64,000 nucleotides of DNA from Patescibacteria group bacterium (GCA_038056395.1 JBBUFS010000004.1:884-64883); one strand, 5' to 3'; shown: positions 287 to 14,594, counted from the stretch's first letter. Notes: generated from the letters alone by a model not told the origin. Translations and numbers: made by a program.

Positions 287-3200
287 TTATGGCGCCGGTT
301 CAACTATGGGTTCAGGTGTCGGTTCCACTACTGCCGATGGAGTTTCCAACGGAGGCTCGGTAACAGGTACCGGTTCAGGAATTGGTTCAGGAATTATTTC
401 CGGCTTGCCCAGCGAAGCTTCAGCGGAGTTGGGAGTAGTAGTGGCAATCGGCTCTTCTATTATTGGCGGAGTGGTGGAAGCTGCTTGCCCTGAGTCAGTC
501 GAAGGGGTTGGTTCTTCTATTGTTGGAGGCGTTGTGTCTGGAGTGGTGGTAGCGGTGGGAGCAGGAGCGATTCCGGAAGAAGCAATCATGGCCGCCAATT
601 GCTCTTTGTTGACGCAGACATTATCTATGCAAAGCTCTTTGGTCTCCACCTTATCAGCCACCAGACTGCCTGTAATAAGTTTTGTTATCTTGACAAAGCC
701 GTTGCCGATTTCCATTCCGATTTGCTTCAAAAATTCAAACAAACCAAACCACTTGCTTGGCACATCCATGACACTGGCGCCATCCGCAGAAACAAGAGTT
801 TTGGCGCTTTCAACTTCTCTCCAGCCGCTTTTTATATAAGCCATAACCGTCTCTTCGGTATAAGAAGTGGAGGAAGCCGTATCTGATTCAGGAGTATAAA
901 AAGCGGTAGAAGTGGCTCCGCCCACCGCCACCCCGACAATATATCCGCTCTCTATCATTTTGACCGCCACGCCCGGCGTAGTGGAAGAAAGAGCTAGATA
1001 ATCGCCAATTTCAATGGCCCCATTTTCATTTGAAATTTTAACCGGCACCTGCCCGGCGATAGAAACCAAAACATTGTATTGGTTATAATTTTGGTCGCAG
1101 TCCGCGTCATTCACGAAACAAATCGGCCCGTTGCCTATAAAGCCGGGATTGGTGGAAACGATACCAAGGGGCTCCGCTTCCCAAGGTGGCACCTTTGGGG
1201 CATTTCCTAAGGTGCCACCTTGGGAAACAGACCCAGCCCTGACTACACTTTTATCTTTCGTCCTATCAAGCGCCACAATTTCTCCAAACTTCGGCTTATT
1301 ATTCAAATCAGAAATTCTAAAATATTCAGCCATGTCGGCGGCAGAGGTGGTGAAAGCGACCACGCTGGCGCCATTGCCTTGTATTTTGCCTCCTACCGTC
1401 TGGGTGCCATCGGCAAAGGCCACGAAATAGTTGCCGGTGGTTCGGCTGGCATTGGCCACGCCGAGAGTAATCAGCAAGCCGTCGGCATCAGCGCCGGTGT
1501 TGGCATTGTCTATGCGAGCGATATAAGTAGACGCTTGGTTGCCTTGAACTGTAAAGTCGTAAGCCAAAGTGGAGGTGCCTATACCGACGGCGCTATTGGT
1601 GGAATCAACCACAAAGGCAGCGGCGCCCAGTCCGTCATAAAGATTGAGGGCGGTGGTGCTTGAAAGATTCATCCAAAGCCCGCCCTCCGCCGTAAAGCCT
1701 GACAAAAATGTCCCGCCCGAAGAATACATGTTCAAAAGATTGGCCGTCTGGCCGGTGGCCGCCGTTATGTCAACTCCGGCGTTTGTGCTTCCTGCCGTAG
1801 TATCTACTTCAAAGACCGGCGTGCCGCTGGCCATTTGGATTGAAAAAGCGGTGCTTGAAGAAATTTTTTGAGTGAAGCCTCCCCATTGGCTGATAGTAAT
1901 TATATTTCCGCTGATGGAACTGCTGGCGATAGTGAGCAAATCTTTAGCCGTTCCCGCCCCTTGCAAAGAAAAGAGAGCGCCGGGCGCCGCTGTGCCTATG
2001 CCCACATTATTGCTGGAAAAATCATAAACAAATCCTGAACCTTCAATGGCTAAGCCTCCGGCGATGGTGGAAGTGGCGATGGTGGAAGTGGCATTAAAAT
2101 TGCCAAATGTCGGAGTGCTTGTAGCGACGATAGCGCCGGAGGCGTTGGTTGAAAGAAGTGAATTAACAGCCGCGCCAGTGAGAGTGAGAGACGGAGTTGA
2201 AATTGAAGAAGTGGCAATCAAGTTTGCCATCGTTACTGTGCCTCCGTCAAAATATCCGCTTCCGGCCACAGACATTTTATAACCGGGTGTGGTGGAGCCA
2301 ATGCCGAGGTTACCGGCAGAATTGAGAGCCAGCAATGTGGTGGAAGCCGAGTTCACAATATTCAATAAATCTTGAGCGGTTGAGGACGCCCAAATAGTTA
2401 GCCGCGCGTATGGCGTGCTTGTGCCTATGGCGATACCCTCATTTTTGGTGTCCCCGCTTCCGTCTGATTCGCTGTAAAGAGTGAGCAGGGGCAAGCCGTC
2501 AATTGAGGCGGAATAACTTTCAATAGTGCCGGCAGAAGCGGAAGATGTGACCGGCATATCAGCCCAAGAAACTATGCCCGCATCGGAATCAAAACTCTGC
2601 GCTCCCAAGACCAAATTATCAATGGCGGTTTCTCCGGTACTCCAATCATAAGTGATTGCCCCATTGCCCACATCCAATCCGCCAACAATAGTTGTCGTCG
2701 CCGTGCTTGTGCTCATCCAAATATCTCCTAAATGATTGACTCTGAAAAATGTGTTGGTGCTGGAGCCAATAATAAAACTATCCATACCCGCTCCTGCATG
2801 AACTGATAAAGTAGCGTAAGGAGAAGATGTCGCTCCTATTCCAACATTTCCCGTCGCGCCAATAATAGTCAGAGCAGAAGTTGTCGTCGTCGCCGTTCCA
2901 TCAACCGTCGTCGTGGCAAAATACAAATTACCTCCGGCGTTTCTTGTTATCCATTGAGCGATGCCCGCCCCGTCAGTGAGTGATGTTGATGAAGCGACGG
3001 TTAATCGTGCAATTGATGACATTGTGGTAGTGCCGATGCCGACGTTACCCTGACTATTAATACGCATCCTTTCAACCGGGTCTTCTCCTCCTCTGTTCCA
3101 AAATATAAGAGCTGTGACAGTATCACTTGTTCTTATGGCCCTAATACCTGCAAGATTATATGCAGAAGAATTACCCAGTGAAATACCAGCCCCGTCGCTA

Positions 3201-6200
3201 CTATTAGACCTTACTAATAATTGAGATCTGGCATCGCCTTGTGCTGTACCATAAGCACCAAATATCTCGGCCGCAGCTCCACTTTGCACACTAGGTGTGC
3301 CAACTAAGAAAGTACCATTTACGTGTAGTTTCTGCAACGGATTCGCCGTCCCTATCCCCACATTTCCCCCATTAGTCACGACGAAAGAAGTGTTGTGGGC
3401 GATGATGCCGCCGAATTCAATAGGGTCATCATTCCACTCATGTTCAAACTCCATAGATCTAAGATCATTATTGTATTTTTTAAGAAGTTTTTGTTCTTCT
3501 TCAAGAGAAAGAATTTTGCCGCTCTTTTTATATTTCAAATGCCCCGCCACGAAGTTGTGCGTGCCTTCCACTTCTATATCGTAGACCTGTTTTTCCTCCA
3601 GCTTTTCTATTTTCTTTATCTTTTCAAAATTCAAATTATTTTCCAGGGACTGCAGTTTGCCCTCATCATGATTTATTGTTTGCGTCTCTATAACAGCAAT
3701 CTCCTGCCCCTCTTTCAAATCGGAGGTTTTTACCCAAGAATCCTTAATTTGCGGAGAATTTCTCTCAATCCTAATTCCAACTTTATTCAGAGCCCATTTT
3801 AGGATTGATTTCTTATCCACATTGGAATCTGTTGAAACGCTTGACAAACCAAACAGGTTCGCTATACTTGGGACACATTCTCCCCTGCCTCGTTCCGTTT
3901 TCGGAGCGGGGTATGGTTTTTTATAGGAGTTCTTATCGCCAATAATTTTCTGGAAAAGCCCTTCAATCGTCCAGCCGAGACGGGAAAGCAATATATATTT
4001 GTGGGCCAAAGAAGTCAGTGCGCCGGAGAGATTTTCCCTTCCGGCAATTATCACCACTTTTTTACCCAAAGCGTTAAGATCTTTTATAAGCGGAGCAAAG
4101 TCGCCATCGCCAGAAAATAAAACTAGAGTATTAAAATCTTCCGCCAACCGAAGCGCGTCTGTAGCTATTTCTACATCAAAATTAGCTTTCGGCTCCAGAA
4201 GCTCAATACCTTGATCATCAAGACGCTTGGCTTCTGATAGTATTGAATTCCTGATTTTTTCTCCACAGGCCTTCAGCCATCTTGAATTTTGATCATTGTC
4301 CAAAAGGTCAGACAAAGAAATCTTAAAATACTGGACTGGTTTAGTGATAATTGAATATCCCGCTTTTTTGAGAAAATTAAAGAATGAGGGTTGATTTAGA
4401 TTTCGTTCATCTGTTCCATAATAGAAGCGGGTATCATATATGCCTATTTTTTTAAGAGTCCTAATCAATATTTCGAGATTCATAGTTAAACCTCTCTTAA
4501 CAAGCCATGATTTTATATTTGCGTAATCAATAAATGCCATAGCTCCGGACTTTGGCCTGCCTATTTTTTCTCTTACTAAATACGGATGAGTGCCCGTAGT
4601 TTCAATGTATCTGCCCGACTCAGTGGTCAATCTGTAAACGGTACGAACGCCCGTATCCAAAAGGCCGTTTATTATATGATATTCAAATTGGCCGGTTTTC
4701 TGATTCAAAGAAAGCACTTCATCTCCAGGCAAGATGTCTTTGATCGGAACAAACAAACTTTCGTATTCATCTGTTTCAAATTCTTCTCCGTCAGAATCGG
4801 TGTATTTTTTCCTGCGTCTTCTGCGAATTTTTAATAGGGTATCTCCCGTCACGCATTGAGTGGTTGAACCGATGGCAAATGCCGGACCGAGAATGCCCGT
4901 GGGATTTATTGACAACTGAGCCCAAGGCGATGAACTTGCAATCCCCACATTTCCCGTCGCGCCAATTATTGTTAATGCCGAAGTTGTCGTCGTTGCTTCT
5001 CCTGTAATTGTCGTAGTGGCAAAATACAGATTTCCTCCAGCGTTTCTTGTTATCCACTGAGCCACTCCCGCTCCATCAGTGAGAGATGTTGATGAAGCCA
5101 CAGTCAGACGATATTGAGGAGTGGTTGTCCCGATGCCGATTTGACCAGAGGAATCAATCAGCATTCTTGTGGCGATTGCGCCACCGGTTGGTTTGGTCTG
5201 AAACGCAAGCGCGCCCGCGTCATCAGCTCCAGCCCGAGCGCTAGCTATGCTGGCTACACGATTCGTCTGATGGTAAAAATCAATTAGAGCAAAACTTGTG
5301 TTGGTGGTTCTGCTTCCCTGCAGTTCCAGTGAAGAAAGGACATTCTCCGAAGCTCCAGCGGAAATAGTTAAGGATTTATTTACACCAGTGGTCAAACCAG
5401 GACTTTCCGTCCCCACCCCCACATTACCCACCGAGTTAATTATAAAGTATGTAGATGTAGCGGAAGCTCCAGTTGAACTTGCCACAACGAAGAGAGGAAC
5501 AACAGATGCTCCATCGGAGTATGAGGAGACAGAGAGTTTGGCCAGAGGAGAAGTGGTGCCAATGCCTAGGTTACCGTTAAAGACGAAGCCGTCTGTGTCA
5601 GTCAGTCCGTTGCCACCGGAGTTAGTGTGTATTATTCGATTAGCTGTAAATCCAGTTTGATCTGTGTCTGTTAAGGCGAGGAATGTTGAGACTCCTGATC
5701 CCCCACCAACGCAATTATTATTAATAGCAAAACATCCTGCGCTTAAGTTGATGCCGACATTTGATGTAGTGGTGGCTGTTGCGGATATATCAAGACCGGC
5801 TAAAGTGGTAGTGCCAAATCCTTCGGTTGAAACGGAGAGGAGAGATTTGGTTGAAGAGCCAACAGCAAAACCCCAAATATCTCCGGCTTGAGTTTCAATA
5901 CCCAATCGAGCAAACGGGGTGGTGGTGCCAACCCCTGTTTTGCCTTGATTAGTCACAACAAAACTGGTGTTGTGAGCGACGATGCCGTTGGCCACGAAGT
6001 TGTGGGTATTTTCAATTTCAATATCGTAAACTTTTTCCTCTGGCATAATTTCAATCTTTGAAATAACATCCCAAACAGATCTTTTATTGCCGGATACGGC
6101 TATTTTTTGGCCTTCCTTTAGACCCTTCACCTTTGTCCACACCCCACCGCTTGACAAAGATGGCGGCTTGGAATAGAGTGTATCCAATAACGCAACCCCA

Positions 6201-9200
6201 AGCCCTGTGCTTGGGGCTTGTTTTTTATCTGCGCCATTTGCCGTATTTTGATACAAGTTTAGGTCATTTTGGTAGTCATCTATGTTTATATGCAGTATCT
6301 GTCTCAACTCCCAAGCCATATTATTTTCAAACCCGGCAAAAGCTATTTTCTTCCCTTTGTTTATGGAATATTTCTTAAGCGGCAAAAGATCGCTGTCTCC
6401 GCTTACTACAAGTATTGCATCGAGATTTTTTGCGGTTTCTGTAACATCAAGAGTAAGTTCTACATCCATATCTCCCTTCTTTTCCATCACCTCTGCCATC
6501 TTTCCATTTATTTCCTTATTAGTTTTTATGTATTTAAGAGGTTTGGTAATTAAATTAACATACGGCTCAACAAAACTTATGTATTTCAATGTCTTCTCTC
6601 TGGACTCATCGCCTTCTTTCGGTATAGCTGTGTAGAAATTTATAAACTGCAAATCAAAAAACTTGGAAAGTTCTTTCTTCAATTTTGCAAAATCAATTTT
6701 CCAGCCCGCTTTTTTCTGAGCATAGAACATATTTGAGTTGTCATAAAATACTCCAAGTTTTGGCTTGACTGGAAGTTTTTCTGGTTTGGTTTGGGTGAAG
6801 TACGGATGCTCGCTTGTCGTCCTGATGGACTTGCCGGAGGCGGTGGTCAGTTTATAAATTTCTTTTTTGCCTGTGTAAACTACTTGCTTGACTTTGCTCC
6901 AGACAAGTTTGCCTGTTTTGGTATCAAGTGATTGAACTTCATCGCCTTCTTCTATGTCTAATATGGTTGGGTTGTCATAAACATACTCCGTATCCAAATC
7001 CGAAGCACTAAATCCGAAATCCGAAAGTTTGGAATTTGGATCATTTGGATTTGGAATTTGTTTAGAATTTCGAGTTTTGAATTTCGAATTTCTTCGACGC
7101 CTTCGTCGAAGTCTAGTGTCTCCCGTCACGCACTGCGTTGTTGAACCTATGGCAAATGCCGGACCGAGAATGCCCGTGGGATTTATTGACAACTGAGCCC
7201 AAGGTGATGAGCTTGCAATTCCCACATTTCCCGTCGCGCCAATTATTGAAAGCGCTTCTATTGAACTCGTCGCTGTTCCGTCAACCGTGGTAGTGGCAAA
7301 ATACAAATTCCCTCCTGCGTTTCTTGTCACCCATTGAGCTACTCCTGCTCCGTCAGTGAGTGCTGTGCTTGATGCGACAGTTAGACGGTATTGAGGTGTG
7401 GTGGTGCCGATGCCGACGTTGCCAGAAGATGTGATTCGCATTCGTTCAACTTGGTTGGTTACAAAACCCAAGACGTTCGCTGCCGGTGAAAATAATCCGG
7501 TACCAGTGCCTAAGATAGCTAAAGCTGGCACGTTCGCTACGCCACCACTGGTTATGAAGAATTTATTACTAACACCGATGTAGTCCGACGAGGAGCGGTT
7601 GAGATAATCGCCACTTGTACCGATATAAAGGTTAGTTACAACGCGGGCGCTGCCATTAACTTCCAAAGGATAGATAGGACTCGCCGTCCTGATGCCGACA
7701 TTGCCATTAGCCAAAACGGTGAAGAGAGTTGAGGTGGCGGTGCCGCCGGTGGTTGAGGCGATGGTGAAGAGAGGCGTGTTGATGGCGGTGTTGAGATTGT
7801 TTGAAATTGAAAGCAGAGAATATGGTGATGTCGTCCCAATACCGACATTGCCGCTTTGCGCAATGAAGAGAGAGGATGTAGCTGTCAAAGTTGTGCCGAC
7901 GGAATCATAAAATGGAACTTGGCCTTGCAAAGTAGAAGCGCCGACCGAACCAGCTCCGGTGCCCGCGCATATGCCGTTGATTGCGAAACATCCGGCTGAA
8001 AGATTGATGCCTACATTTGATGTGCTTGTGGCTTGACCGATAATATCCAAACCGCGAATTGTGGTTGTTCCAAATCCCCCGCCTGCGATTTCTAGAGCAG
8101 AGATGGTAGTAGTGGCTTCTCCGGTGATTGTTGTGGTGGCGAAATATAAATTCCCTCCGGCGTTCCTAAATGTCCATTGGCCAATGCCTGCTCCGGCTGA
8201 AAGCGAAAGTTGAGGCGAGGTGGAGGAAGATACCGTCAGTTGATAACTGGCGGCAGTGGTAGTGCCGATGAGTATTTGCGAAGTAGTGGCGGACAAACCA
8301 AGTAAGGGATGAGTCCAAGCGTCGTAGGAAGAGAGAGGAGTAAATCCGAATATGGAAGATGAGGCGGCTACATTGAGCGTTCCATCATTTCCGGCCGTGT
8401 AGACGAAACCGTTGGCGGTCAAATTTGAAAGTTTAGGAATACTGGCCGAACCTTCCACGGTAAGATTGCCGCCAAGGTAAGTGTTGTGAGCGATGATGTC
8501 GTTCCCCACGAAGTTGTGAGTGCCTTCCACTTCAATGTCATAGACTTTTTCAGCTGGCAGACGCTTGATCTCAATTACTTTTTCCCAAGCGGCTCTCTCC
8601 CCGTGAATAACAGCTACAGATTCGCCGACTCGCAGATCCCCCGCCACTCTCCACACGCCATCCTTGACAAGATTTTCAGATTTGCTATACTTGCTCTCAA
8701 GAAGCGCTCGTGAGCCAACCAGACTCTCGTCTTTGTGCGAGAAAACAGTAGCTCTAAGGGCGTTTTCTGTTTGGGCCAAAAGCGCGGTCGCGTCTGCTCC
8801 GACTTTTTCATCCGCTTTTTTCTTGCCAATATGAACGCCCCAGGCCGCAAAGTGAGCCGGCGACTTTTTGCCGATTGGAGCGAAATGTATTTCAATATCG
8901 GCAAATTGATTTTTGATGATAGAAGCAATAATTTTATCATGACCGATATACTCGGTATCAATAACAAGCTCGTGAACTGTAGATTTGAGCTTCAACAAAG
9001 CTTCTTTTATGCCGATAGCAAACAAAATCGCATAAAGTTTGCCTGATTTTTTAAATCTTTTCTTGAAATTTTGTTTTATCTCGCGCGGTATTACGACCGA
9101 GATTGAGTTTTCTTGATTTGCCACTGATATGACGGTATCATGATTGAAGTTTTCAATCTTTACTGATTGATCCGCTTCAAATTTGTAAAGCTTTTGGTTC

Positions 9201-11314
9201 GTTTTTAGAGGATATTTTGTGCGGACAAAATACGGATGAACAGCGGTAGTGCGTATGCTTTTGCCGGTAATAGTAGTAATCTTGTATAAATCCTTGATTC
9301 CCATATCCATCAAAGCGTTCACTCGCGACCAAATCAGCTTGCCTGTAATCTGGTCCATTGATTGAATCTCGTCTCCCGGCTCCACATCTTTGATCATCAC
9401 TTCATCATAAATGTATGCCCCTTTGCGTCTTCTCCTTCTCCTTAGTTTTGTGTCTGCCGTCACACAATGCGTCCCGACCGCAAATCCTCCGGCCGGACTT
9501 GTGGTTGCCACCCCCACCAATCCGTTTGCTGTAATAGTCAGAGCAGCCAGGGTAGAAGTGGCTGTGCCGTCAATAGTGGTGGTGGCGAAGTATAGATTAC
9601 CGCCTGCATTCCTCATTGTCCATTGAGCCACACCCGCTCCGGCGGAAAGCGAGAGTTGAGGAGCGGTGGAGGAGGCGACAGTGAGCAAATATTGAGGAGT
9701 GGTAGTGCCAAGACCGAGATTTTTAGAATTATTGTCCCAGACAAAATTACTATCAAATGAGAGATTGCCGCCGTTTGTCCAAAAAGCAGCCCTGTTTGCC
9801 GCGCCACTACCGGTCAGGCCGGCGCCCAGACCGAGGCAGGTGCCATCCATAGCGAAACAACCGTCAGAAATATCAAATCCTCCGGCTGATGTGGTAGTGC
9901 CGGTGCCATTGATAGCTAAATTGCCGCTAAAAGTAGAGGTGGCCGTGGAGGTGCCGGTAAAGTAGGCGCCAACAATTTGTCCCGCCACCGAAAGACTGGC
10001 GTATGGAGAAGTGGTGCCTATACCAAAATTAGTGCCGTCAAAAACAAAACCATCAGTATCGGTCAGGGCAGTGCCAAGCGCATTAGTGTGAATAATCCTG
10101 TTTGCTGTAAAAGCTGATGGCGTATCAGTGAGGGCCAGATAAGTGGAAGCTCCGGAACTGCTTGAGCTGCTAGAAGAACTAGAAGAACTGCCGGCTCTGC
10201 CAACAATTACATCATTTTGTCTGGATATATAATATCTGTTTACATTCGGCGCCAGAGGCGAAATCAAAAACCAATTTTTTAATTCTGCAATTTTAAAATC
10301 TACATATTCTTTGTCAGAGCCAGCCACAAAAACCGTTTTAGCTATTCTTCCTTCTTCTTCTGTTGTAAGAGAGGGTTGGAGTGAGTTATTTGAAATATTA
10401 TTTTCAACAATAATAGTTCCTCCATCTTTCAAAAACCAGGGCCTCACTATTTTATAAGCAGTATCTTTCATCCATCCAGAAATAGATTGCCATCCATCGA
10501 CAGAAAACAAAGAAGAAGCAAGTTGATTACTGCTTTGGTTTACATTTGAAATATTCTCTTTAAATTTTGAAAAATCATTTTGAAATTTATTTATATAAGG
10601 ACTATACAAAAAAGATATTTCTTCCTTGACTTGACCTCCAAAATGAGTTGGGATTGGATTTTTGAAATTTTCTTTACCAAAAATAAAGACTCCTGTAAGC
10701 AATAAAACAAGGGTAATAACGCTGGTATTTATAACAAACTTATCAAAGCTAGACCTCTTTGGGGACCTTTTTATCGCTTCCTCAACACCACTCAGAGCAA
10801 TGTATCTTGCCGTCCTTATATCAAATTTTTTTTCTAAAACCGGAAATAATTCTTTATCATCCTTATAATACAAGGGTTTTATCTCTCCGACATCTCGGGT
10901 ACTCGAGATACGCGATTTTACCTTTTTTTCCGTCAGTAATTCCCTTGGTAAAAAGGAGTCCTCCGAAACCATATTGTCGTCAAATACAGCAACTTTTTCC
11001 CACTTACTTTTTTCTTTATTTTTATCTTTTTCTTCTTCTAGATTTTCAACCTGATTCTCTGATTTTATCTCTAGACCATTTTTTTTTAGCCGGCGAGTTT
11101 TGAGAGTTTTCTTATGGGTTAGTAGATTTTTATTTTTATGATCCAAAATTTCATTTTCCAAAACATACCAGCTTCTACCAACCAAACTAGCAGTGATTTT
11201 TTTTGCTCTGCAAAGTTGTCCGATATAATCACTGGCATAACCAGTGATGTCAGCAGCTCGGCTTGCCGAGATGTATTTTTTACCTTTCAAATAAAGAGAC
11301 TTATTCACACACAT
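287..11314 (-). CDS. Giant (3675 aa precursor, about 2471 aa after splicing) membrane-anchored surface repeat protein interrupted by three inteins. It has an N-terminal HTH_17/excisionase-like segment, one TM helix, long Gly/Thr/Ser-rich beta-repeats (NVGIGTTxP...L.V.G; tail-fibre / Chlorovirus-glycoprotein-like) and a Pro/Thr/Glu-rich C-terminal tail
   Basis: Single uninterrupted ORF. TM segment FVINTSVITLVLLLTGVFIFG. Repeated modules GNVGIGTTTPQYRLTVASSTSLTDGAGVAQWITRNAGGNLYFATTT recur at least 5 times. Three Hint domains carry all intein blocks. C-terminus is ...TPEPIVEPAP. Confidence 0.8.
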   Translation of the reverse strand: MCVNKSLYLKGKKYISASRAADITGYASDYIGQLCRAKKITASLVGRSWYVLENEILDHKNKNLLTHKKTLKTRRLKKNGLEIKSENQVENLEEEKDKNKEKSKWEKVAVFDDNMVSEDSFLPRELLTEKKVKSRISSTRDVGEIKPLYYKDDKELFPVLEKKFDIRTARYIALSGVEEAIKRSPKRSSFDKFVINTSVITLVLLLTGVFIFGKENFKNPIPTHFGGQVKEEISFLYSPYINKFQNDFSKFKENISNVNQSSNQLASSLFSVDGWQSISGWMKDTAYKIVRPWFLKDGGTIIVENNISNNSLQPSLTTEEEGRIAKTVFVAGSDKEYVDFKIAELKNWFLISPLAPNVNRYYISRQNDVIVGRAGSSSSSSSSSSSSGASTYLALTDTPSAFTANRIIHTNALGTALTDTDGFVFDGTNFGIGTTSPYASLSVAGQIVGAYFTGTSTATSTFSGNLAINGTGTTTSAGGFDISDGCFAMDGTCLGLGAGLTGSGAANRAAFWTNGGNLSFDSNFVWDNNSKNLGLGTTTPQYLLTVASSTAPQLSLSAGAGVAQWTMRNAGGNLYFATTTIDGTATSTLAALTITANGLVGVATTSPAGGFAVGTHCVTADTKLRRRRRRKGAYIYDEVMIKDVEPGDEIQSMDQITGKLIWSRVNALMDMGIKDLYKITTITGKSIRTTAVHPYFVRTKYPLKTNQKLYKFEADQSVKIENFNHDTVISVANQENSISVVIPREIKQNFKKRFKKSGKLYAILFAIGIKEALLKLKSTVHELVIDTEYIGHDKIIASIIKNQFADIEIHFAPIGKKSPAHFAAWGVHIGKKKADEKVGADATALLAQTENALRATVFSHKDESLVGSRALLESKYSKSENLVKDGVWRVAGDLRVGESVAVIHGERAAWEKVIEIKRLPAEKVYDIEVEGTHNFVGNDIIAHNTYLGGNLTVEGSASIPKLSNLTANGFVYTAGNDGTLNVAASSSIFGFTPLSSYDAWTHPLLGLSATTSQILIGTTTAASYQLTVSSSTSPQLSLSAGAGIGQWTFRNAGGNLYFATTTITGEATTTISALEIAGGGFGTTTIRGLDIIGQATSTSNVGINLSAGCFAINGICAGTGAGSVGASTLQGQVPFYDSVGTTLTATSSLFIAQSGNVGIGTTSPYSLLSISNNLNTAINTPLFTIASTTGGTATSTLFTVLANGNVGIRTASPIYPLEVNGSARVVTNLYIGTSGDYLNRSSSDYIGVSNKFFITSGGVANVPALAILGTGTGLFSPAANVLGFVTNQVERMRITSSGNVGIGTTTPQYRLTVASSTALTDGAGVAQWVTRNAGGNLYFATTTVDGTATSSIEALSIIGATGNVGIASSSPWAQLSINPTGILGPAFAIGSTTQCVTGDTRLRRRRRRNSKFKTRNSKQIPNPNDPNSKLSDFGFSASDLDTEYVYDNPTILDIEEGDEVQSLDTKTGKLVWSKVKQVVYTGKKEIYKLTTASGKSIRTTSEHPYFTQTKPEKLPVKPKLGVFYDNSNMFYAQKKAGWKIDFAKLKKELSKFFDLQFINFYTAIPKEGDESREKTLKYISFVEPYVNLITKPLKYIKTNKEINGKMAEVMEKKGDMDVELTLDVTETAKNLDAILVVSGDSDLLPLKKYSINKGKKIAFAGFENNMAWELRQILHINIDDYQNDLNLYQNTANGADKKQAPSTGLGVALLDTLYSKPPSLSSGGVWTKVKGLKEGQKIAVSGNKRSVWDVISKIEIMPEEKVYDIEIENTHNFVANGIVAHNTSFVVTNQGKTGVGTTTPFARLGIETQAGDIWGFAVGSSTKSLLSVSTEGFGTTTLAGLDISATATTTSNVGINLSAGCFAINNNCVGGGSGVSTFLALTDTDQTGFTANRIIHTNSGGNGLTDTDGFVFNGNLGIGTTSPLAKLSVSSYSDGASVVPLFVVASSTGASATSTYFIINSVGNVGVGTESPGLTTGVNKSLTISAGASENVLSSLELQGSRTTNTSFALIDFYHQTNRVASIASARAGADDAGALAFQTKPTGGAIATRMLIDSSGQIGIGTTTPQYRLTVASSTSLTDGAGVAQWITRNAGGNLYFATTTITGEATTTTSALTIIGATGNVGIASSSPWAQLSINPTGILGPAFAIGSTTQCVTGDTLLKIRRRRRKKYTDSDGEEFETDEYESLFVPIKDILPGDEVLSLNQKTGQFEYHIINGLLDTGVRTVYRLTTESGRYIETTGTHPYLVREKIGRPKSGAMAFIDYANIKSWLVKRGLTMNLEILIRTLKKIGIYDTRFYYGTDERNLNQPSFFNFLKKAGYSIITKPVQYFKISLSDLLDNDQNSRWLKACGEKIRNSILSEAKRLDDQGIELLEPKANFDVEIATDALRLAEDFNTLVLFSGDGDFAPLIKDLNALGKKVVIIAGRENLSGALTSLAHKYILLSRLGWTIEGLFQKIIGDKNSYKKPYPAPKTERGRGECVPSIANLFGLSSVSTDSNVDKKSILKWALNKVGIRIERNSPQIKDSWVKTSDLKEGQEIAVIETQTINHDEGKLQSLENNLNFEKIKKIEKLEEKQVYDIEVEGTHNFVAGHLKYKKSGKILSLEEEQKLLKKYNNDLRSMEFEHEWNDDPIEFGGIIAHNTSFVVTNGGNVGIGTANPLQKLHVNGTFLVGTPSVQSGAAAEIFGAYGTAQGDARSQLLVRSNSSDGAGISLGNSSAYNLAGIRAIRTSDTVTALIFWNRGGEDPVERMRINSQGNVGIGTTTMSSIARLTVASSTSLTDGAGIAQWITRNAGGNLYFATTTVDGTATTTTSALTIIGATGNVGIGATSSPYATLSVHAGAGMDSFIIGSSTNTFFRVNHLGDIWMSTSTATTTIVGGLDVGNGAITYDWSTGETAIDNLVLGAQSFDSDAGIVSWADMPVTSSASAGTIESYSASIDGLPLLTLYSESDGSGDTKNEGIAIGTSTPYARLTIWASSTAQDLLNIVNSASTTLLALNSAGNLGIGSTTPGYKMSVAGSGYFDGGTVTMANLIATSSISTPSLTLTGAAVNSLLSTNASGAIVATSTPTFGNFNATSTIATSTIAGGLAIEGSGFVYDFSSNNVGIGTAAPGALFSLQGAGTAKDLLTIASSSISGNIITISQWGGFTQKISSSTAFSIQMASGTPVFEVDTTAGSTNAGVDITAATGQTANLLNMYSSGGTFLSGFTAEGGLWMNLSSTTALNLYDGLGAAAFVVDSTNSAVGIGTSTLAYDFTVQGNQASTYIARIDNANTGADADGLLITLGVANASRTTGNYFVAFADGTQTVGGKIQGNGASVVAFTTSAADMAEYFRISDLNNKPKFGEIVALDRTKDKSVVRAGSVSQGGTLGNAPKVPPWEAEPLGIVSTNPGFIGNGPICFVNDADCDQNYNQYNVLVSIAGQVPVKISNENGAIEIGDYLALSSTTPGVAVKMIESGYIVGVAVGGATSTAFYTPESDTASSTSYTEETVMAYIKSGWREVESAKTLVSADGASVMDVPSKWFGLFEFLKQIGMEIGNGFVKITKLITGSLVADKVETKELCIDNVCVNKEQLAAMIASSGIAPAPTATTTPDTTPPTIEEPTPSTDSGQAASTTPPIIEEPIATTTPNSAEASLGKPEIIPEPIPEPVPVTEPPLETPSAVVEPTPEPIVEPAP
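3392..4855 (-). mobile_element. Intein 3 (488 aa); CVTGDTLL...TTGTHPYL...VYDIEVEGTHNFVAG-(40 aa insert)-GGIIAHN | T(+1); contains an NYN/LabA-like nuclease domain
   Basis: Terminal Asn codon at 3394-3392 (frame-consistent). Cys1 codon maps to about 4855-4852; my by-eye indexing here is uncertain by +/-1 nt. Exteins ...AIGSTTQ | TSFVVTNGGNVGIG; same insertion site as intein 2. Confidence 0.75.
3956..4546 (-). other. NYN/LabA-like nuclease domain inside intein 3
   Basis: AMAFIDYANIKSW (FIDxxN), ANFDVEIATDALRLAED, LVLFSGDGDFAPLIKDLNALGKKVVIIAG. All three acidic motifs are conserved. Confidence 0.6.
5969..7132 (-). mobile_element. Intein 2 (388 aa); CVTGDTRL...TTSEHPYF...VYDIEIENTHNFVANGIVAHN | T(+1); contains an NYN/LabA-like nuclease domain
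   Basis: Cys1 codon at 7132-7130, terminal Asn codon at 5971-5969; both frame-consistent with the host ORF. Flanking exteins are ...AIGSTTQ | TSFVVTNQGKTGVGTTTP. Confidence 0.8.
6278..6769 (-). other. NYN/LabA-like (PIN-fold) nuclease domain inside intein 2
   Basis: The three NYN signature motifs appear in order: LGVFYDNSNM (FxDxxN), GDMDVELTLDV (acidic D-x-D/E), ILVVSGDSDLLPLKK (SGDSDxxPL) followed by GKKIAFAG. Pattern match by eye to PF01936-type proteins. Confidence 0.55.
8483..9466 (-). mobile_element. Intein 1 (328 aa), residues 617-944 of the precursor; Cys1 = CVTADT, block B TTAVHPYF, block F/G VYDIEVEGTHNFVGNDIIAHN | T(+1); carries a roughly 170-aa insert of unknown type
   Basis: Codons mapped by reverse-complementing the sequence: tgt(Cys1) at 9466-9464, aac(terminal Asn) at 8485-8483, followed by act (Thr+1). 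In frame with the host ORF. No LAGLIDADG or HNH motifs seen in the insert. Confidence 0.8.
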
Positions 11315-11341
11315 ATTATACTATCTCGGCTTGCCGAGATG
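11257..11341. promoter_or_regulatory. Two identical 17-nt copies of ctcggcttgccgagatg (11257-11273 and 11325-11341). Each is a 6-bp-stem hairpin, and they flank the start codon of the giant gene (ATG at 11314-11312)
   Basis: Exact duplicate read from the sequence: one copy 11 nt upstream of the ATG (mRNA sense), one in codons 14-19. Lies inside the divergent promoter region shared with the HTH gene at 11627. Confidence 0.4.
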
Positions 11342-11512
11342 AATAAAAAAGGTGGGGATAATTTAAAATAAATTTAAAATTTTTAGTTTCTAATTTTCAA
11401 ACAATTTCTAATTTCAAAATATCATATTAAATTACTAACAAAACAGACATTGGTTAATCAATGTATAATCAGCTATTTATTCATTAATAAATAATAAATT
11501 TTAAATTAAAAA

Positions 11513-11548
11513 AATTCTTAAAACTCTTATTAAAGAGTTTTAAGAATT
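11513..11548. promoter_or_regulatory. Perfect 36-nt palindrome aattcttaaaactctt-atta-aagagttttaagaatt in the divergent intergenic region
   Basis: 16-nt arms are exact reverse complements. Located between the giant gene start and the HTH gene start. Confidence 0.4.
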
Positions 11549-11564
11549 ATCCACATTACTAAAC

Positions 11565-11594
11565 TTGCATATTTATTCACAATTATATTATAAT
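11565..11594 (+). promoter_or_regulatory. Sigma70-like promoter candidate TTGCAT-18 nt-TATAAT about 33 nt upstream of the HTH gene
   Basis: ttgcat at 11565-11570, tataat at 11589-11594; very AT-rich surroundings, so specificity is limited. Confidence 0.3.
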
Positions 11595-11626
11595 GTTTAT
11601 ATAGGTTTAATAATGTTTAATTTTTA

Positions 11627-11890
11627 TTGATTTTAAATAATAATATGAATAAATATATAACAATTAAAGACGCTTCTAATATATTAGGTATGTCTAAGAT
11701 CACCCTTAGAAATTGGGACAAGTCCGGCAAGCTCAAGGCCCACCGCCATCCCTTTAATAATTACAGAGTCTATAAATTGGAGGACATTGACAAAGTATTG
11801 GAAATGATTGAGAGTAATATTTTCATCATAAAAAAGAAAAAGAATGAGATTCGCAAGTTGGCTGTTCGCCACTTAGAAGAAAATCAGTAG
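11627..11890 (+). CDS. Small HTH DNA-binding protein, MerR/excisionase (HTH_17) type
   Basis: MNKYITIKDASNILGMSKITLRNWDKSGKLKAHRHPFNNYRVYKLEDIDKV matches the HTH_17 pattern (ylt.keaaellgvs..tl..w...Gkl.a.r.g..rry..edl). Divergent from the giant gene, whose N-terminus carries a similar segment. Confidence 0.6.
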   Translation: MILNNNMNKYITIKDASNILGMSKITLRNWDKSGKLKAHRHPFNNYRVYKLEDIDKVLEMIESNIFIIKKKKNEIRKLAVRHLEENQ

Positions 11891-12399
11891 AGAAAGAGTG
11901 AAAGAAAAAAAGTAAATTTTTCTAAACAATTAGGTAATTTAAATAAAAAAAATATGGTTTTAAAATTATTGGATTTTAGTTTTTAGATATTCCATTTCAG
12001 TTTCAGAAAATACAACAAAACTTTTAATCAAAATTCATCTTCCTTTCTTATTTTTCCCTTCTTTTTTATTTTAAGTGCGGCATAATTAGATTGCTAATTT
12101 GCTGTGATTTTTTTATATAATGAACCAATTCAGATTTTATTTCTTTATAGATTCTCTACAAATTTGATTTTGAAGCAAAAACTTCCTTCTCTCTCCGATC
12201 AAATAAGATTAAACCTTTTGCAAAATTATAAAGAAGATTTCTTTTTTTATTCCAATTGGTCCAATATTAAACAAAAGACTAGCTGGCACAATAATTGGAT
12301 TTTAAATTAGCTCAATCTTACATAAAAAACTACATTTAATAACACCGCTATACAACATTTTCTATATAACATTTTACAATATTTCTATACAAAAATCTA

Positions 12400-12443
12400 T
12401 ACTAAACGCTCAGCGTCTAATATTAGACGCTGAGCGTTTAGTA
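12400..12443. repeat. Perfect 40-44 nt palindrome (ctaaacgctcagcgtctaa-ta-ttagacgctgagcgtttag) immediately upstream of the Y1 transposase; candidate IS200/IS605 end hairpin or REP-like element
   Basis: 19-nt arms at 12402-12420 and 12423-12441 are exact reverse complements; GC-rich relative to surroundings. Confidence 0.6.
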
Positions 12444-12497
12444 GTTATCCACAAGATAAAAATTAAACAGGAGTCCCCTTGTTATAATAAATGCACT

Positions 12498-13151
12498 ATG
12501 AGATACGAAAATTTTGCGGAGAATGAGCACTATCATATATTTGGCAGAGGAATTAATAAAGAAAAAATATTTATTGATGAACAAGATCGAATAAGATTTA
12601 TATTTTTAATCACCCATTTCCAATCCCCTATCAAAATATATAACATATCTTGGTACACTAAGGCCTTTATTAAAAGCGGTTCTTTTAATTTTAGTGCCAA
12701 AAAGAGCGGAACAGAAGAAATACTTAAAAAAAGAAATGTTGAGCTAGTGGCTTTTGCTTTAATGCCAAATCATTTTCATATTTTGATTAAAAATTTAGAG
12801 GATCGTATCCTCTCTGTCTATATGCACCGAATCCTGACCGCTTACAGCAAATATTTTAATGCCAAGTATAATAAAAAAGGTCATGTTTTTGAAGGACCCT
12901 TCGGGGCAGTGTTGGTTGAAAATAATAATCAACTTTTGCACCTATCCGCCTATATCCACAAGAACCCAAAGGAAATTAAGGAGTGGACGAACAATTATGA
13001 TAAATATCCATATTCAAGCTATCAAGATTACATTGGTTCAAACAGATGGGGAGACCTTCTTGTCACTGATATAATCTTAAAACAATTCAAAGACTGGGTT
13101 AAATATAAGGATTTTGTTTCCACTAGTGTGGCTAAAGAGCCCTTATTTTAA
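12498..13151 (+). CDS. IS200/IS605-family Y1 (HUH) transposase / REP-associated tyrosine transposase (RayT-like)
   Basis: YHIFGRGINKEKIFIDEQDRIRF (N-terminal motif), ALMPNHFHILI (HUH motif), GHVFEGPFGAVLVENNNQLLHLSAYIHKNPKE (catalytic Tyr region, YIHxNP). The 3' end overlaps the gatB stop by 9 nt. Confidence 0.65.
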   Translation: MRYENFAENEHYHIFGRGINKEKIFIDEQDRIRFIFLITHFQSPIKIYNISWYTKAFIKSGSFNFSAKKSGTEEILKKRNVELVAFALMPNHFHILIKNLEDRILSVYMHRILTAYSKYFNAKYNKKGHVFEGPFGAVLVENNNQLLHLSAYIHKNPKEIKEWTNNYDKYPYSSYQDYIGSNRWGDLLVTDIILKQFKDWVKYKDFVSTSVAKEPLF

Positions 13152-14594
13152 GCCTGTTTGAGTGATAATTTTTTCAAAAATATCTTTAAGTTTTTGGGGA
13201 TTAGCCGAACCACCGGTAGTTTTCATTCCCTGACCAATTAAAAAATGTAGGGCCGAAGCTTTGCCACTTTTGTATTCCAAAACCACATTTTGATTTTCTG
13301 ATATTATTTTGCTTGCCACCTTGGTGAGTTCTTCCTCATTACTTTTTTGAAATAACCCCCCTTCCTCCACTATGATTTTAGGATCTCGTTCATTTTCTAT
13401 CATTTTACCAAGTATACCTTTGGCTCCACGAGAAGAAATTTCTCCAGCAACAACCATAGAGATAAGATTTGAAAGATGTTTGGGTTTTATAGAGAACCCA
13501 TTTTTGCCAAAACTCGCGATATCACTCACTATATAATTAGAGAGTAACTGAAAATCTTTTTGATCTAGATCAACTGAAGTTTCTTCAAACAAAACGCCAA
13601 ATTTGGGATAAGAAATATAAAAAATAACATCACTCTCTTTTAAGCCATAATCTTTTTTGAATCTCTCTCTTTTTTGGACTGGGGTCTCTTTTATTTCACG
13701 ACGCAAAATTTCTTCGCTAAATTCAGGGAGCTCGCTTAATTTAAGTTTAGGTAAATCAGGGTCTGAAAAATATCGGTAGTCATGGGAATCTTCTTTTGAC
13801 CTTTGTGAAAATGTTATTTGTTTTTTGTCGTCCCAACCCCTGGTCTCCTGAACCACTTTTTTTACTTCACTTCGTTCAGCGCCTTCGGTCTCTTCTAAAA
13901 GTTCAGTTTGTCTTTTAATTTCGTATTCTATGGCTCTTTCAGCAGAACGAAAGGAATTTAGGTTTTTTACTTCTACTTTAGTTCCCAATTTTTTCACCCC
14001 CACTTCGTCAAGACTTCGCGGGGCAAGTGAAATATTGGCTTCAAGCCTCATTTCTCCCTTCTCCATATTAGCTTCGGCTATCCCCAAATATTGCAAAAGA
14101 AGCTGCAGTTCTTGACCAAATTTAACAACTTCGCCGGATGAATGCATTACCGGTTCTGTCACTAGCTCCAAAAGAGGTACTCCGGCCCGATTGAAATCAA
14201 CCAAACTATTTTCGCCTTGGTGAATAGATTTGGCCGTGTCTTCTTCCAGATGAATTCTGGTTATTTTAACTCCAGCAAGTTCGCCGCCAGACACAAGCGG
14301 ATGCTTGTATTGGCTGATTTGATAACCTTTTGGTATATCCGGATAGAAATAATTTTTGCGGTCAAATTCAGAAAAATCAGCCAGTTCCCCTTTCACTGCA
14401 AGCCCTACTCTTAAAACCTGCTTGACCGCTTCTTTATTTATAACTGGCAAAGTACCAGGCTGGCCGGTGCAAATTGGGCAAATATTCACATTGGGGTTTT
14501 TTTCATCCGTATCGTTCTTGCATGAACAGAACATTTTAGTATCAGTTTTCAGTTCAGCGTGTACTTCAAGACCTATAGTGGGTTTATATTCCAT
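13143..14594 (-). CDS. gatB: Aspartyl/glutamyl-tRNA(Asn/Gln) amidotransferase subunit B
   Basis: MEYKPTIGLEVHAELKTDTKMFCSCKNDTDEKNPNVNICPICTGQPGTLPVINKEAV... is a canonical GatB N-terminus; about 480 aa. Confidence 0.9.
   Translation of the reverse strand: MEYKPTIGLEVHAELKTDTKMFCSCKNDTDEKNPNVNICPICTGQPGTLPVINKEAVKQVLRVGLAVKGELADFSEFDRKNYFYPDIPKGYQISQYKHPLVSGGELAGVKITRIHLEEDTAKSIHQGENSLVDFNRAGVPLLELVTEPVMHSSGEVVKFGQELQLLLQYLGIAEANMEKGEMRLEANISLAPRSLDEVGVKKLGTKVEVKNLNSFRSAERAIEYEIKRQTELLEETEGAERSEVKKVVQETRGWDDKKQITFSQRSKEDSHDYRYFSDPDLPKLKLSELPEFSEEILRREIKETPVQKRERFKKDYGLKESDVIFYISYPKFGVLFEETSVDLDQKDFQLLSNYIVSDIASFGKNGFSIKPKHLSNLISMVVAGEISSRGAKGILGKMIENERDPKIIVEEGGLFQKSNEEELTKVASKIISENQNVVLEYKSGKASALHFLIGQGMKTTGGSANPQKLKDIFEKIITQTGLK

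Follow-up and report, generated by a model that had tools for sequence, protein, structure and literature searches.

An 18-bp palindrome conserved at the promoter and within the coding sequence of a membrane-anchored winged-helix giant protein gene in Patescibacteria

In a Patescibacteria group bacterium (GCA_038056395.1), a gene for a giant, predicted surface protein of 3675 residues lies divergently to a small gene for a MerR/BldC-like protein, and a palindromic element recurs three times at the promoter and within the coding sequence of the giant gene. The stretch analyzed, hereafter the window, comprises 64 kb (JBBUFS010000004.1:884-64883). The giant open reading frame (ORF) starts with a winged helix-turn-helix (wHTH) domain, followed by a linker, one transmembrane (TM) helix, a repeat region and three inteins. 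For comparison, 160 related loci were retrieved, 140 of which are distinct and amount to 1.16 Mb of distinct locus sequence; individual related loci are referred to by codes such as L049. Here, we describe the palindrome and its conservation, and consider which molecule is likely to read it.

An initial annotation of the window had pointed to an exactly duplicated 17-mer, CTCGGCTTGCCGAGATG, at the start of the giant gene, and exactly two copies were indeed found in the window (11257-11273 and 11325-11341). The total number of matches was four, consisting of the two exact copies and the same two sites on the opposite strand with 3 mismatches, compared to a mean expectation of 0.06, and 0 of 100 shuffled sequences reached this number. 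Each copy had been described as a hairpin of 6 bp, but the actual structure is 5 bp with a 4-nt loop. Moreover, the conserved unit is not the 17-mer but an 18-bp palindrome, ATCTCG-N6-CGAGAT in the coding (minus) strand reading, the ideal form of which is ATCTCGGCTAGCCGAGAT. The arms are kept across related loci, whereas exact identity over the 17-mer is specific to the window and the center varies. Allowing at most one mismatch, the 18-mer occurs 3 times in the 64 kb, against 0.09 expected and with 0 of 100 shuffles reaching 3; all three copies, designated O1, O2, and O3, lie inside 450 bp, and none is found elsewhere in the 64 kb. The shuffles of both the 17-mer and the 18-mer rule out a chance origin.

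The positions of these sites are conserved as well. Across the 140 distinct loci, 137 of 166 motif matches fall at the positions of O1, O2, and O3 or directly upstream of O1. O1 stands at a fixed -110 or -111 nt from the codons for the DYIGQLCR motif of the wHTH domain in 37 distinct loci, in 33 of them as a perfect palindrome, and is always followed by nGTATAAT and then by 6-7 nt before ATG or GTG. O2 coincides with the codons I-S-A-S-R-A at the beginning of the helix-turn-helix (HTH), and at this place the 140 distinct loci use ATC for Ile in 115 of 128 cases (30% in the background, defined as the rest of the same ORFs), TCG for Ser in 126 of 137 (92%, background 11%), and CGA for Arg in 91 of 106 (86%, background 14%). 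Judging from this codon usage, O2 is held by rare synonymous codon choice, that is, by selection at the nucleotide level. O3 spans the codons I-S-S-T-R-D in the linker; it occurs in most giant orthologs and is read there in one of two frames (ISxxRD, n = 18; SRxxE[IL], n = 22). In relatives with tandem HTH copies, the second copy lacks the O2 motif (GTA TCA in L037 and L042), and the motif is thus positional and not a by-product of encoding an HTH. This observation, together with the two frames of O3, led us to reject a codon artefact as the origin of O2. Variants were also found: L015 lacks O1 and the usual O2, and has a near-perfect palindrome 8 nt further on in another frame; distant clades retain only the right half-site, CCGAGAT, abutting the -10 element; L020 and L105 carry CGAGAT as a direct repeat; and in the clade of L006, L084, and L107, O1 is 17 bp long, the gap between the arms being one base shorter. 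The palindromes could also be imagined as repetitive extragenic palindromic (REP) elements of the Y1 gene, which encodes a protein like REP-associated tyrosine transposases (RAYT) and lies further upstream; this was rejected, given that there are only three copies in the window, that their positions are fixed across species, and that they occur in clades without this gene too.

In approximately 40 orthologs, the region upstream of the giant gene follows a single pattern: TTTATCC[A/C]CA, a T-rich stretch, ATCTCG-N6-CGAGAT, nG, TATAAT(A), 6-7 nt, and ATG or GTG. GTG 11308, and not ATG 11314, is the most likely start of the giant ORF, because only a GTG or ATG aligned with 11308 is conserved in these orthologs and ATG 11314, which has no counterpart in most orthologous loci, abuts the TATAAT. 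Across more than 100 loci, the distance from TATAAT to the start codon is 6-7 nt, reaching 8 nt in distant members of the family. With the -10 element this close to the start and no Shine-Dalgarno sequence, the giant mRNA is probably leaderless, and O1 would therefore be promoter DNA outside the main transcript. This is the reason why an mRNA structure that hides the start codon, one of the proposals of the initial annotation, is not supported: it needs a transcribed O1, and O1 is upstream of the conserved TATAAT. For other genes of the window, Shine-Dalgarno sequences are mostly missing and TATAAT often stands 6-13 nt before the ATG of the first gene of an operon, which suggests that leaderless or very short-leader mRNAs are widespread in this organism; a literature search on leaderless translation in Patescibacteria returned nothing relevant. 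No recognizable -35 element was seen 19-20 bp upstream of the giant -10 in the intergenic alignment, and candidate hexamers 17-20 bp upstream (TTCATC, TATTCA, and TTATTC) match TTGACA at no more than 3 of 6 positions. Approximately 60-100 nt upstream of this promoter, at 11375-11425 on the minus strand, the sequence TTGAAA(A)TTAGAAA occurs twice, 20 nt apart, with helically phased A/T tracts; similar AATTGTTTGAAAATTAGAAATT strings occupy the corresponding position in numerous orthologs as well as in distant loci, and these repeats may be curved DNA or a further binding site.

The protein encoded downstream of O1 begins with what had been proposed to be an excisionase/MerR-type HTH, and the predicted structure agrees with this. 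A profile-based AlphaFold2 model of the giant N-terminus (mean predicted local distance difference test score 88) displays the order strand-strand-helix-helix-strand-strand-helix, and compact Foldseek matches include Pukovnik Xis (root-mean-square deviation [rmsd] 1.8), BldC (1.7), RdfS, RacA, and GlnR; these matches have an rmsd of 1.7-2.9 and probabilities of 0.75-0.99, but E-values of only 0.1-0.8. Pfam HTH_17 (PF12728) matches residues 16-62 with 20.2 bits (E 7e-4; 14.2 bits in the whole giant protein), below the gathering cut-off of 27, and several homologs of the giant N-terminus carry a precomputed PF12728 assignment. On the basis of the modeled fold, the giant N-terminus is an excisionase/BldC/MerR-type winged helix. 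Its recognition helix, DY[IV]GQLCR, and its wing, GRSWYV, are invariant or nearly so. The peptides that had been quoted from this N-terminus and from the small protein are both present in the translations.

Only one hydrophobic segment is present in the 3675 residues, and its position is conserved in orthologs. There are 5 Lys/Arg residues on its N-terminal side and 1 on its C-terminal side, so that by the positive-inside rule the N-terminus is predicted to be inside; because of this charge distribution around a single TM helix, the HTH and a linker of approximately 130 residues would be cytoplasmic and some 3400 residues would be outside. This arrangement bears out the ToxR/CadC-like topology that had been suggested, with a cytoplasmic HTH, one TM helix, and a huge outside part, but the DNA-binding domain is of a different family. 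In ToxR/CadC-type membrane-integrated one-component regulators such as Escherichia coli CadC (PMC6320335, PMC5430869), a cytoplasmic N-terminal DNA-binding domain is likewise connected by a flexible linker to a single TM helix with an extracytoplasmic part behind it, and the target likewise lies beside the regulator's own gene. However, the domain of the giant protein is an excisionase/MerR-type wHTH (HTH_17-like) and not of the OmpR/PhoB type (no Pfam match to Trans_reg_C, PF00486, at E <= 0.1), and the giant protein is for this reason not a member of the ToxR/CadC family. It also differs in that its outside part is a 3400-residue repeat protein with inteins instead of a sensor domain, and in that it would presumably act on the promoter and coding sequence of its own gene.

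Homologs of giant protein residues 1-375 were found only in Patescibacteria (Zambryskibacteria and other Paceibacteria). The HTH, linker, TM helix, and first outside segment align over their full length in about 10 truncated giant orthologs, while hundreds of proteins of 250-600 aa share only the HTH; at E <= 1e-3, the HTH family comprises 7258 clusters at 50% identity. All of its 150 best-scoring members, proteins of approximately 300-400 aa, contain two tandem HTH copies, and most members that combine the HTH with a TM helix (HTH-TM) are small, at approximately 320 aa. No NCBIfam model covers the N-terminal module of the giant protein, and the HTH-TM family is without a curated family, having no NCBIfam match and a sub-threshold Pfam match. 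No description of this family or module was found in the searchable literature.

Among 127 sequences, the arms of O2 show no compensatory changes: when one arm deviates, the other does not follow. This rules out a generic hairpin for O2. The arms of the palindrome are essentially invariant, and the center differs between loci. Because the invariant arms lack compensation, because some clades retain a half-site only, and because L020/L105 have a direct repeat, the data point to a palindrome that is read as sequence, in half-sites of 6-9 nt as a winged-helix protein would read it, and not to a generic hairpin. We consider it likely that the palindromes are DNA sites read by a protein that controls this promoter. 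The operator-like character and autoregulation put forward in the initial annotation are reasonable, since the GC-rich element is a conserved cis-element of the giant gene, with binding as a prediction.

The same data bear on the possibility that the element functions in RNA, where O1:O2 pairing in a longer transcript would hide the start codon, and O2 and O3 hairpins would modulate translation, stability, or termination. A predicted O1:O2 duplex of -30.3 kcal/mol in the window, with an equivalent predicted in 23 of 36 orthologs, is consistent with this idea, as is the finding that, within a locus, the spacers of O1 and O2 tend to be reverse complements of each other (3.86 of 6 positions match, compared to 3.31 when permuted; 0 of 5000 permutations, uncorrected for phylogeny). 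Moreover, the core takes the form of a terminator in L049, L074, L030, and L035, with complementary flanks and T-runs. Specifically, in L049 and L074, where gatB directly precedes the HTH-TM gene, a perfect ATCTCGGCTAGCCGAGAT is extended into a terminator hairpin by locus-specific complementary flanks and a T-run, and two more palindrome-core terminator hairpins of L049 are located where the HTH-TM gene ends and downstream of it. However, with TATAAT 2 nt after O1 and 6-8 nt from the start in more than 100 loci, the main mRNA should lack O1. The O2 arms are without compensatory covariation, the right arm of O2 is lost in many orthologs, distant clades retain the half-site only, and O3 is too distant to participate. 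Template-switch correction of quasi-palindromes is an established mutational mechanism by which spacer matching may arise neutrally, and a GC-rich palindromic operator in an AT-rich genome would be easily co-opted as a terminator stem. A search of Rfam with 10500-13500 yielded no meaningful match. We regard a role in RNA as very improbable, although the spacer matching, the predicted pairing, and the terminator extension pull in its direction. As separate observations, gatB is also the upstream gene on the same strand in the window (13143-14594), and 11257-11280 on the plus strand, antisense to the giant gene, contains the O2 hairpin followed by ATGTATTTTT and reads as an intrinsic terminator for antisense transcription; this T-run is the complement of conserved Lys-Lys-Tyr codons.

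As for the protein that reads the palindromes, our tentative preference, which we hold to be plausible rather than probable, is that they serve as operators for one of the wHTH proteins of the locus. The likeliest candidate is the N-terminal domain of the giant protein, which would repress its own gene; both the identity of this binder and repression through binding are what we infer, whereas the sites with their positions and nucleotide-level conservation, the fold, the topology, and the gene pairing are what the analysis shows. The giant protein's domain is favored because the motif travels with the HTH-TM gene, also in loci where the small gene is not nearby, and is confined to it, because the small gene has its own, different conserved elements, and because the tandem-HTH relatives would fit a target of two half-sites. 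Perfect palindromes adjoin the HTH-TM gene in L049, L074, L030, and L035, which have no small-gene neighbor. The recognition helix, DYIGQLCR, is as invariant as the palindrome arms.

The small MerR/BldC-like protein is the other local candidate, and could bind the palindromes and, at O1, which lies between the -10 and the promoter elements further upstream, either repress or activate the giant gene via distortion of the promoter spacer. Its start is most likely ATG 11645, giving 81 aa, and not TTG 11627, because the first residue aligned in most orthologs is among the first few of the 81-aa form. It is a clear MerR-type wHTH protein, with Pfam matches to PF00376 (38.9 bits, cut-off 28.2) and PF13411 (31.7 bits, cut-off 21.6) and with PDB-profile matches to CarA-Nter, MerR-like regulators, BrlR, MtaN, Xis, and BldC (BldC chains, E ~1e-3); its public annotations are generic names only (excisionase, MerR, or integrase-resolvase). 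Its gene is the divergent neighbor in 93 distinct loci and is far better conserved than the giant N-terminus, the protein being up to 97% identical in orthologs (in L009, 97% compared to approximately 45% for the giant N-terminus). The O1 dyad, centered approximately 11 nt upstream of the -10, occupies the place of a MerR operator, and the left arm of O2 is present in 79 of 83 loci with the small-gene neighbor versus 15 of 33 without it, a comparison confounded by phylogeny. However, conservation of the small protein ends at about residue 62, with a variable tail, and a protein of 81 aa with no conserved sequence past this point has no room for the MerR coiled coil. Of the features of classical MerR proteins, it possesses the N-terminal wHTH and lacks both the coiled-coil helix and the C-terminal effector-binding region; without a coiled-coil dimerizer or effector domain, it resembles BldC more than a palindrome-binding dimer. 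Its size and its match to the BldC profile would fit the BldC family, and the direct repeats ATAATGTTTA and, in one clade, tandem box-like repeats are candidate sites for head-to-tail binding. In the intergenic alignment no palindrome was found at the promoter of the small gene, which has a TTATCCACA box and a direct repeat instead, and a MerR-type model would call for a -35 element where the giant promoter has no recognizable one. Furthermore, perfect palindromes persist beside the HTH-TM gene where the small gene is not nearby, and the sites inside the coding sequence would be left without a reason. Altogether, we judge control of the palindromes by the small protein, the foremost alternative, to be possible but somewhat unlikely.

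The two HTH proteins of the locus had been described as resembling each other, and they are related at the level of the superfamily but no closer: BLASTP of the giant HTH against the small HTH protein found no similarity, and a profile-profile comparison gave a weak match (probability 64%, E 6.6e-5, 32 columns over the helix-turn-helix). Covariation between recognition helices and motif variants, which was examined to assign binders, gave no signal, both helices being invariant.

If the giant protein's domain is the binder, then its HTH bound at O1, abutting the -10 element, would block RNA polymerase and result in negative autoregulation, and O2 and O3 would be auxiliary sites that add affinity, or roadblocks. 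A second input may come via the TTATCC[A/C]CA box 41 nt upstream of the -10, bound by the small protein or by DnaA; the giant gene shares this box with the divergent small MerR/BldC-like gene. The nascent domain might also act in cis on its own gene, which is plausible because the mRNA would be leaderless, with transcription, translation, and membrane insertion coupled. We consider it unlikely that there is cis feedback of this kind, in which the first-translated wHTH binds its own promoter and its own coding DNA during transcription and membrane insertion. If true, initiation of the giant surface protein, and of many small Paceibacteria relatives, would be coupled to the membrane insertion of the previous copy, and the codons for the DNA-binding domain would themselves spell out the operator to which this domain binds.

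Binding of the palindromes by the giant HTH might instead serve an architectural purpose, either membrane tethering of the locus or stabilization of coupled expression and insertion of the 11-kb gene. Tethering would be in keeping with RacA being among the structural matches of the HTH domain, with sites that lie within the gene as well as at the promoter (in L049, also flanking the gene 3' end), and with a membrane-anchored protein that has a cytoplasmic linker. Yet in 37 loci the core promoter is overlapped by O1, whose distance from the -10 does not vary, as in a transcriptional operator, and three sites per locus, with none elsewhere in 64 kb, would be a weak anchor. For an aid to insertion, the difficulty is that most family members are approximately 320 aa, so that insertion of a giant chain is not an issue. 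Such a purpose therefore seems quite improbable to us.

The inverted arrangement of O1 and O2, which bracket the -10 and the start codon, would also be expected of the inverted repeats of a 68-bp invertible or excisable switch for phase variation of a surface protein, perhaps driven by the Y1 transposase-like enzyme. In L008, L010, L011, and L088, the copies are inverted including the asymmetric spacer, and the Y1/RAYT-like gene is syntenic in Zambryskibacteria. However, the orientation is the same in all of approximately 41 independent assembled orthologous loci, the arms span no more than 6-7 bp, the segment is shorter than known invertases would require, and the spacers are direct and not inverted in the window and in L032. 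In addition, the palindromes reach far beyond the clade with the Y1 gene, and O3 and the promoters with only a half-site would be unexplained. We consider such a switch extremely unlikely.

Several findings weigh against repression by the giant protein's own domain. For the domain itself, these are its sub-threshold score with PF12728 and the absence of any match when the HTH profile was searched against PDB sequences. The small MerR-like protein is an equally local candidate, O1 is located where MerR-type regulators bind, and the presence of the O2 left arm tracks the small-gene neighbor, subject to the confounding by phylogeny mentioned above. The 17-bp O1 of L006, L084, and L107 is awkward for a rigid dimer, and the O1-O2 spacing of 68 bp, approximately 6.5 helical turns, is poor for looping. 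Lastly, the spacers of O1 and O2 correspond to each other within a locus, mostly as reverse complements, O1 and O2 would pair if on one RNA in the orthologs counted above, and the terminator-extended core points to an RNA role in loci of the L049/L074 type.

The locus can be compared with several known regulators. BldC binds direct repeats as a monomer (PMC5859096); like Xis, it is a soluble protein that occupies AT-rich direct repeats in a head-to-tail manner (PMC5859096, PMC11963761). Both HTH proteins of the locus share the fold of BldC, Xis, and RdfS and are like them in being without the MerR coiled coil, the small protein also in its size, and the half-site or direct-repeat sites in some clades are similar; in contrast, the main target here is a GC-rich inverted repeat, and one of the two HTH domains forms part of a giant surface protein with a TM helix. 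Likeness to classical MerR systems is found in the dyad, situated in the spacer just upstream of the -10, and in the divergent regulator gene, whereas the lack of a recognizable -35 at 19-20 bp, candidate proteins without a coiled coil or an effector domain, the extra operators in the coding sequence, and the distance of approximately 270 bp between the two promoters set the locus apart. The lac operon has an auxiliary operator, also called O2, inside lacZ at +401. As in lac, a promoter operator is accompanied here by downstream intragenic copies, one of them approximately 400 bp away, but the coding sequence with these copies is that of the presumed repressor, synonymous codons maintain the sites across more than 100 species, and looping is a candidate only. 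RacA, the chromosome anchor of Bacillus subtilis, is a soluble MerR-like wHTH protein that binds DivIVA and has approximately 25 sites near the origin. Besides the structural match, the two share a MerR-like wHTH that would link a GC-rich palindrome to the cell envelope, but here the anchor is a TM helix and the three sites are in one gene.

Patescibacteria (Candidate Phyla Radiation) are uncultivated, and almost nothing is known of their gene regulation. The locus offers a conserved and experimentally tractable regulatory module, composed of a probably leaderless promoter, an 18-bp palindrome, a shared upstream box, and two wHTH proteins, one of them joined to a membrane anchor and, in the case of Zambryskibacteria, also to a surface protein of 3675 residues. 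If the proposed reading is true, it would represent a class of membrane-tethered regulators on a fold other than that of ToxR/CadC, with operators embedded in their own gene. The locus also illustrates clearly how a protein code and a DNA code can overlap, which annotation pipelines would miss.

Table 1. Features of the giant-gene locus in the window and terminator-extended palindromes in two related loci
Feature	Position	Strand	Description
Giant ORF	287-11314	minus	3675 aa from ATG 11314; wHTH, predicted cytoplasmic linker, one TM helix, repeat region, three inteins
Probable true start, GTG	11306-11308	minus	6 nt after TATAAT; conserved GTG/ATG position in ~40 orthologs
-10 of giant gene, TATAAT	11315-11320	minus	Near-invariant in orthologs
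O1	11323-11340	strandless	Perfect palindrome ATCTCG-GCAAGC-CGAGAT in promoter spacer; ends 2 nt upstream of -10
O2	11255-11272	strandless	ATCTCG-GCAAGC-CGAGCT in ORF, ~37 nt after start codon
O3	10892-10909	strandless	Perfect palindrome ATCTCG-AGTACC-CGAGAT in ORF, ~400 nt into coding sequence
wHTH domain	11105-11299	minus	Residues ~6-70
TM helix	10673-10741	minus	Residues 192-214; the only one
Intein 1	8483-9466	minus	aa 617-944
Intein 2	5969-7132	minus	aa 1395-1782
Intein 3	3392-4855	minus	aa 2154-2641
TTATCCCCA box	11353-11361	minus	DnaA-box-like, one-off; 41 nt upstream of giant -10 in nearly all loci
Hairpin 16+4+16 with T-run	11513-11548	minus	Terminator-like
Small-gene promoter	11547-11594	plus	TTATCCACA box 11547-11555, TTGCAT 11565-11570, TATAAT 11589-11594
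Direct repeat, ATAATGTTTA x2	11590-11619	plus	Spaced 20 nt; conserved, in small-gene leader
Small MerR/BldC-like wHTH gene	11645-11890	plus	81 aa; divergent neighbor
Y1 gene	12498-13151	plus	IS200-like/REP-associated tyrosine transposase-like
Terminator-extended palindromes	L049: 5692-5709, 6824-6841, 7163-7180; L074: 5921-5938		After gatB; in L049 also at and past the HTH-TM gene 3' end

An alignment of 24 intergenic regions contains only two conserved blocks, the giant promoter and the small-gene promoter; the two -10 elements are approximately 270 bp apart and the promoters do not overlap. At the small gene, the order TTATCCACA, 9 nt, TTGCAT, 18 nt, TATAAT is conserved. The ATAATGTTTA repeat starts one base inside the -10 of this promoter and is a candidate autoregulatory site for the BldC-like protein.

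The sequence TTATCC[A/C]CA corresponds to the DnaA-box consensus, and a perfect TTATCCACA DnaA-box 9-mer (TTAT[A/C]CACA) occurs at 11547 and at 12445, where binding of DnaA is a prediction only. TTATCC[A/C]CA boxes are positioned 38-42 nt upstream of the -10 of three neighboring promoters (approximately 41 nt for both the giant and the small gene), at a distance that is fixed in orthologs. The 64 kb contain 8 boxes, of which the five located elsewhere do not occupy a promoter position, so a general promoter element was rejected. With three DnaA-like 9-mers in 1.1 kb, a replication origin was also considered and rejected: no GC-skew switch is present at 11-12 kb, where the skew follows the gene strand, and the fixed distance of the boxes from promoters argues against it as well. 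One distant clade (L026, L036, L047, L078, and L139) has 3-4 tandem box-like repeats with 11-13-nt spacing.

Between the two promoters lies a sequence that had been taken for a perfect palindrome of 36 nt and a likely operator site. Its arms are perfect over 16 nt, but the 4-nt center is not self-complementary, and as a shared operator it did not stand up: a strong hairpin was found at the corresponding place in only 5 of 45 orthologs, and when read on the minus strand it resembles an intrinsic terminator, with a 16-bp stem followed by TTTTTTTAATTT (z = -6.3; only 3 of 16 pairs are G-C). The hairpin would most likely insulate the giant promoter from read-through.

Ahead of the Y1 gene stand a perfect palindrome of 22+22 nt (12400-12443) and a TTATCCACA box (12445-12453). 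Orthologous loci of Zambryskibacteria retain this box and the start ATGAGATAC in the same position, and because of this conservation in place, the gene looks syntenic or domesticated and not mobile.

Pfam matches on the giant ORF, apart from the sub-threshold HTH_17, consist of three intein splicing domains and two NYN domains. Each intein opens with CVT[AG]DT and then five or six Arg/Lys residues. In inteins 2 and 3, NYN (PF01936) nuclease-like domains are found where a homing endonuclease is usual, and both of these inteins are inserted at the same repeat motif, ...STTQ/C...HN/TSFVV, with slashes marking the intein boundaries.

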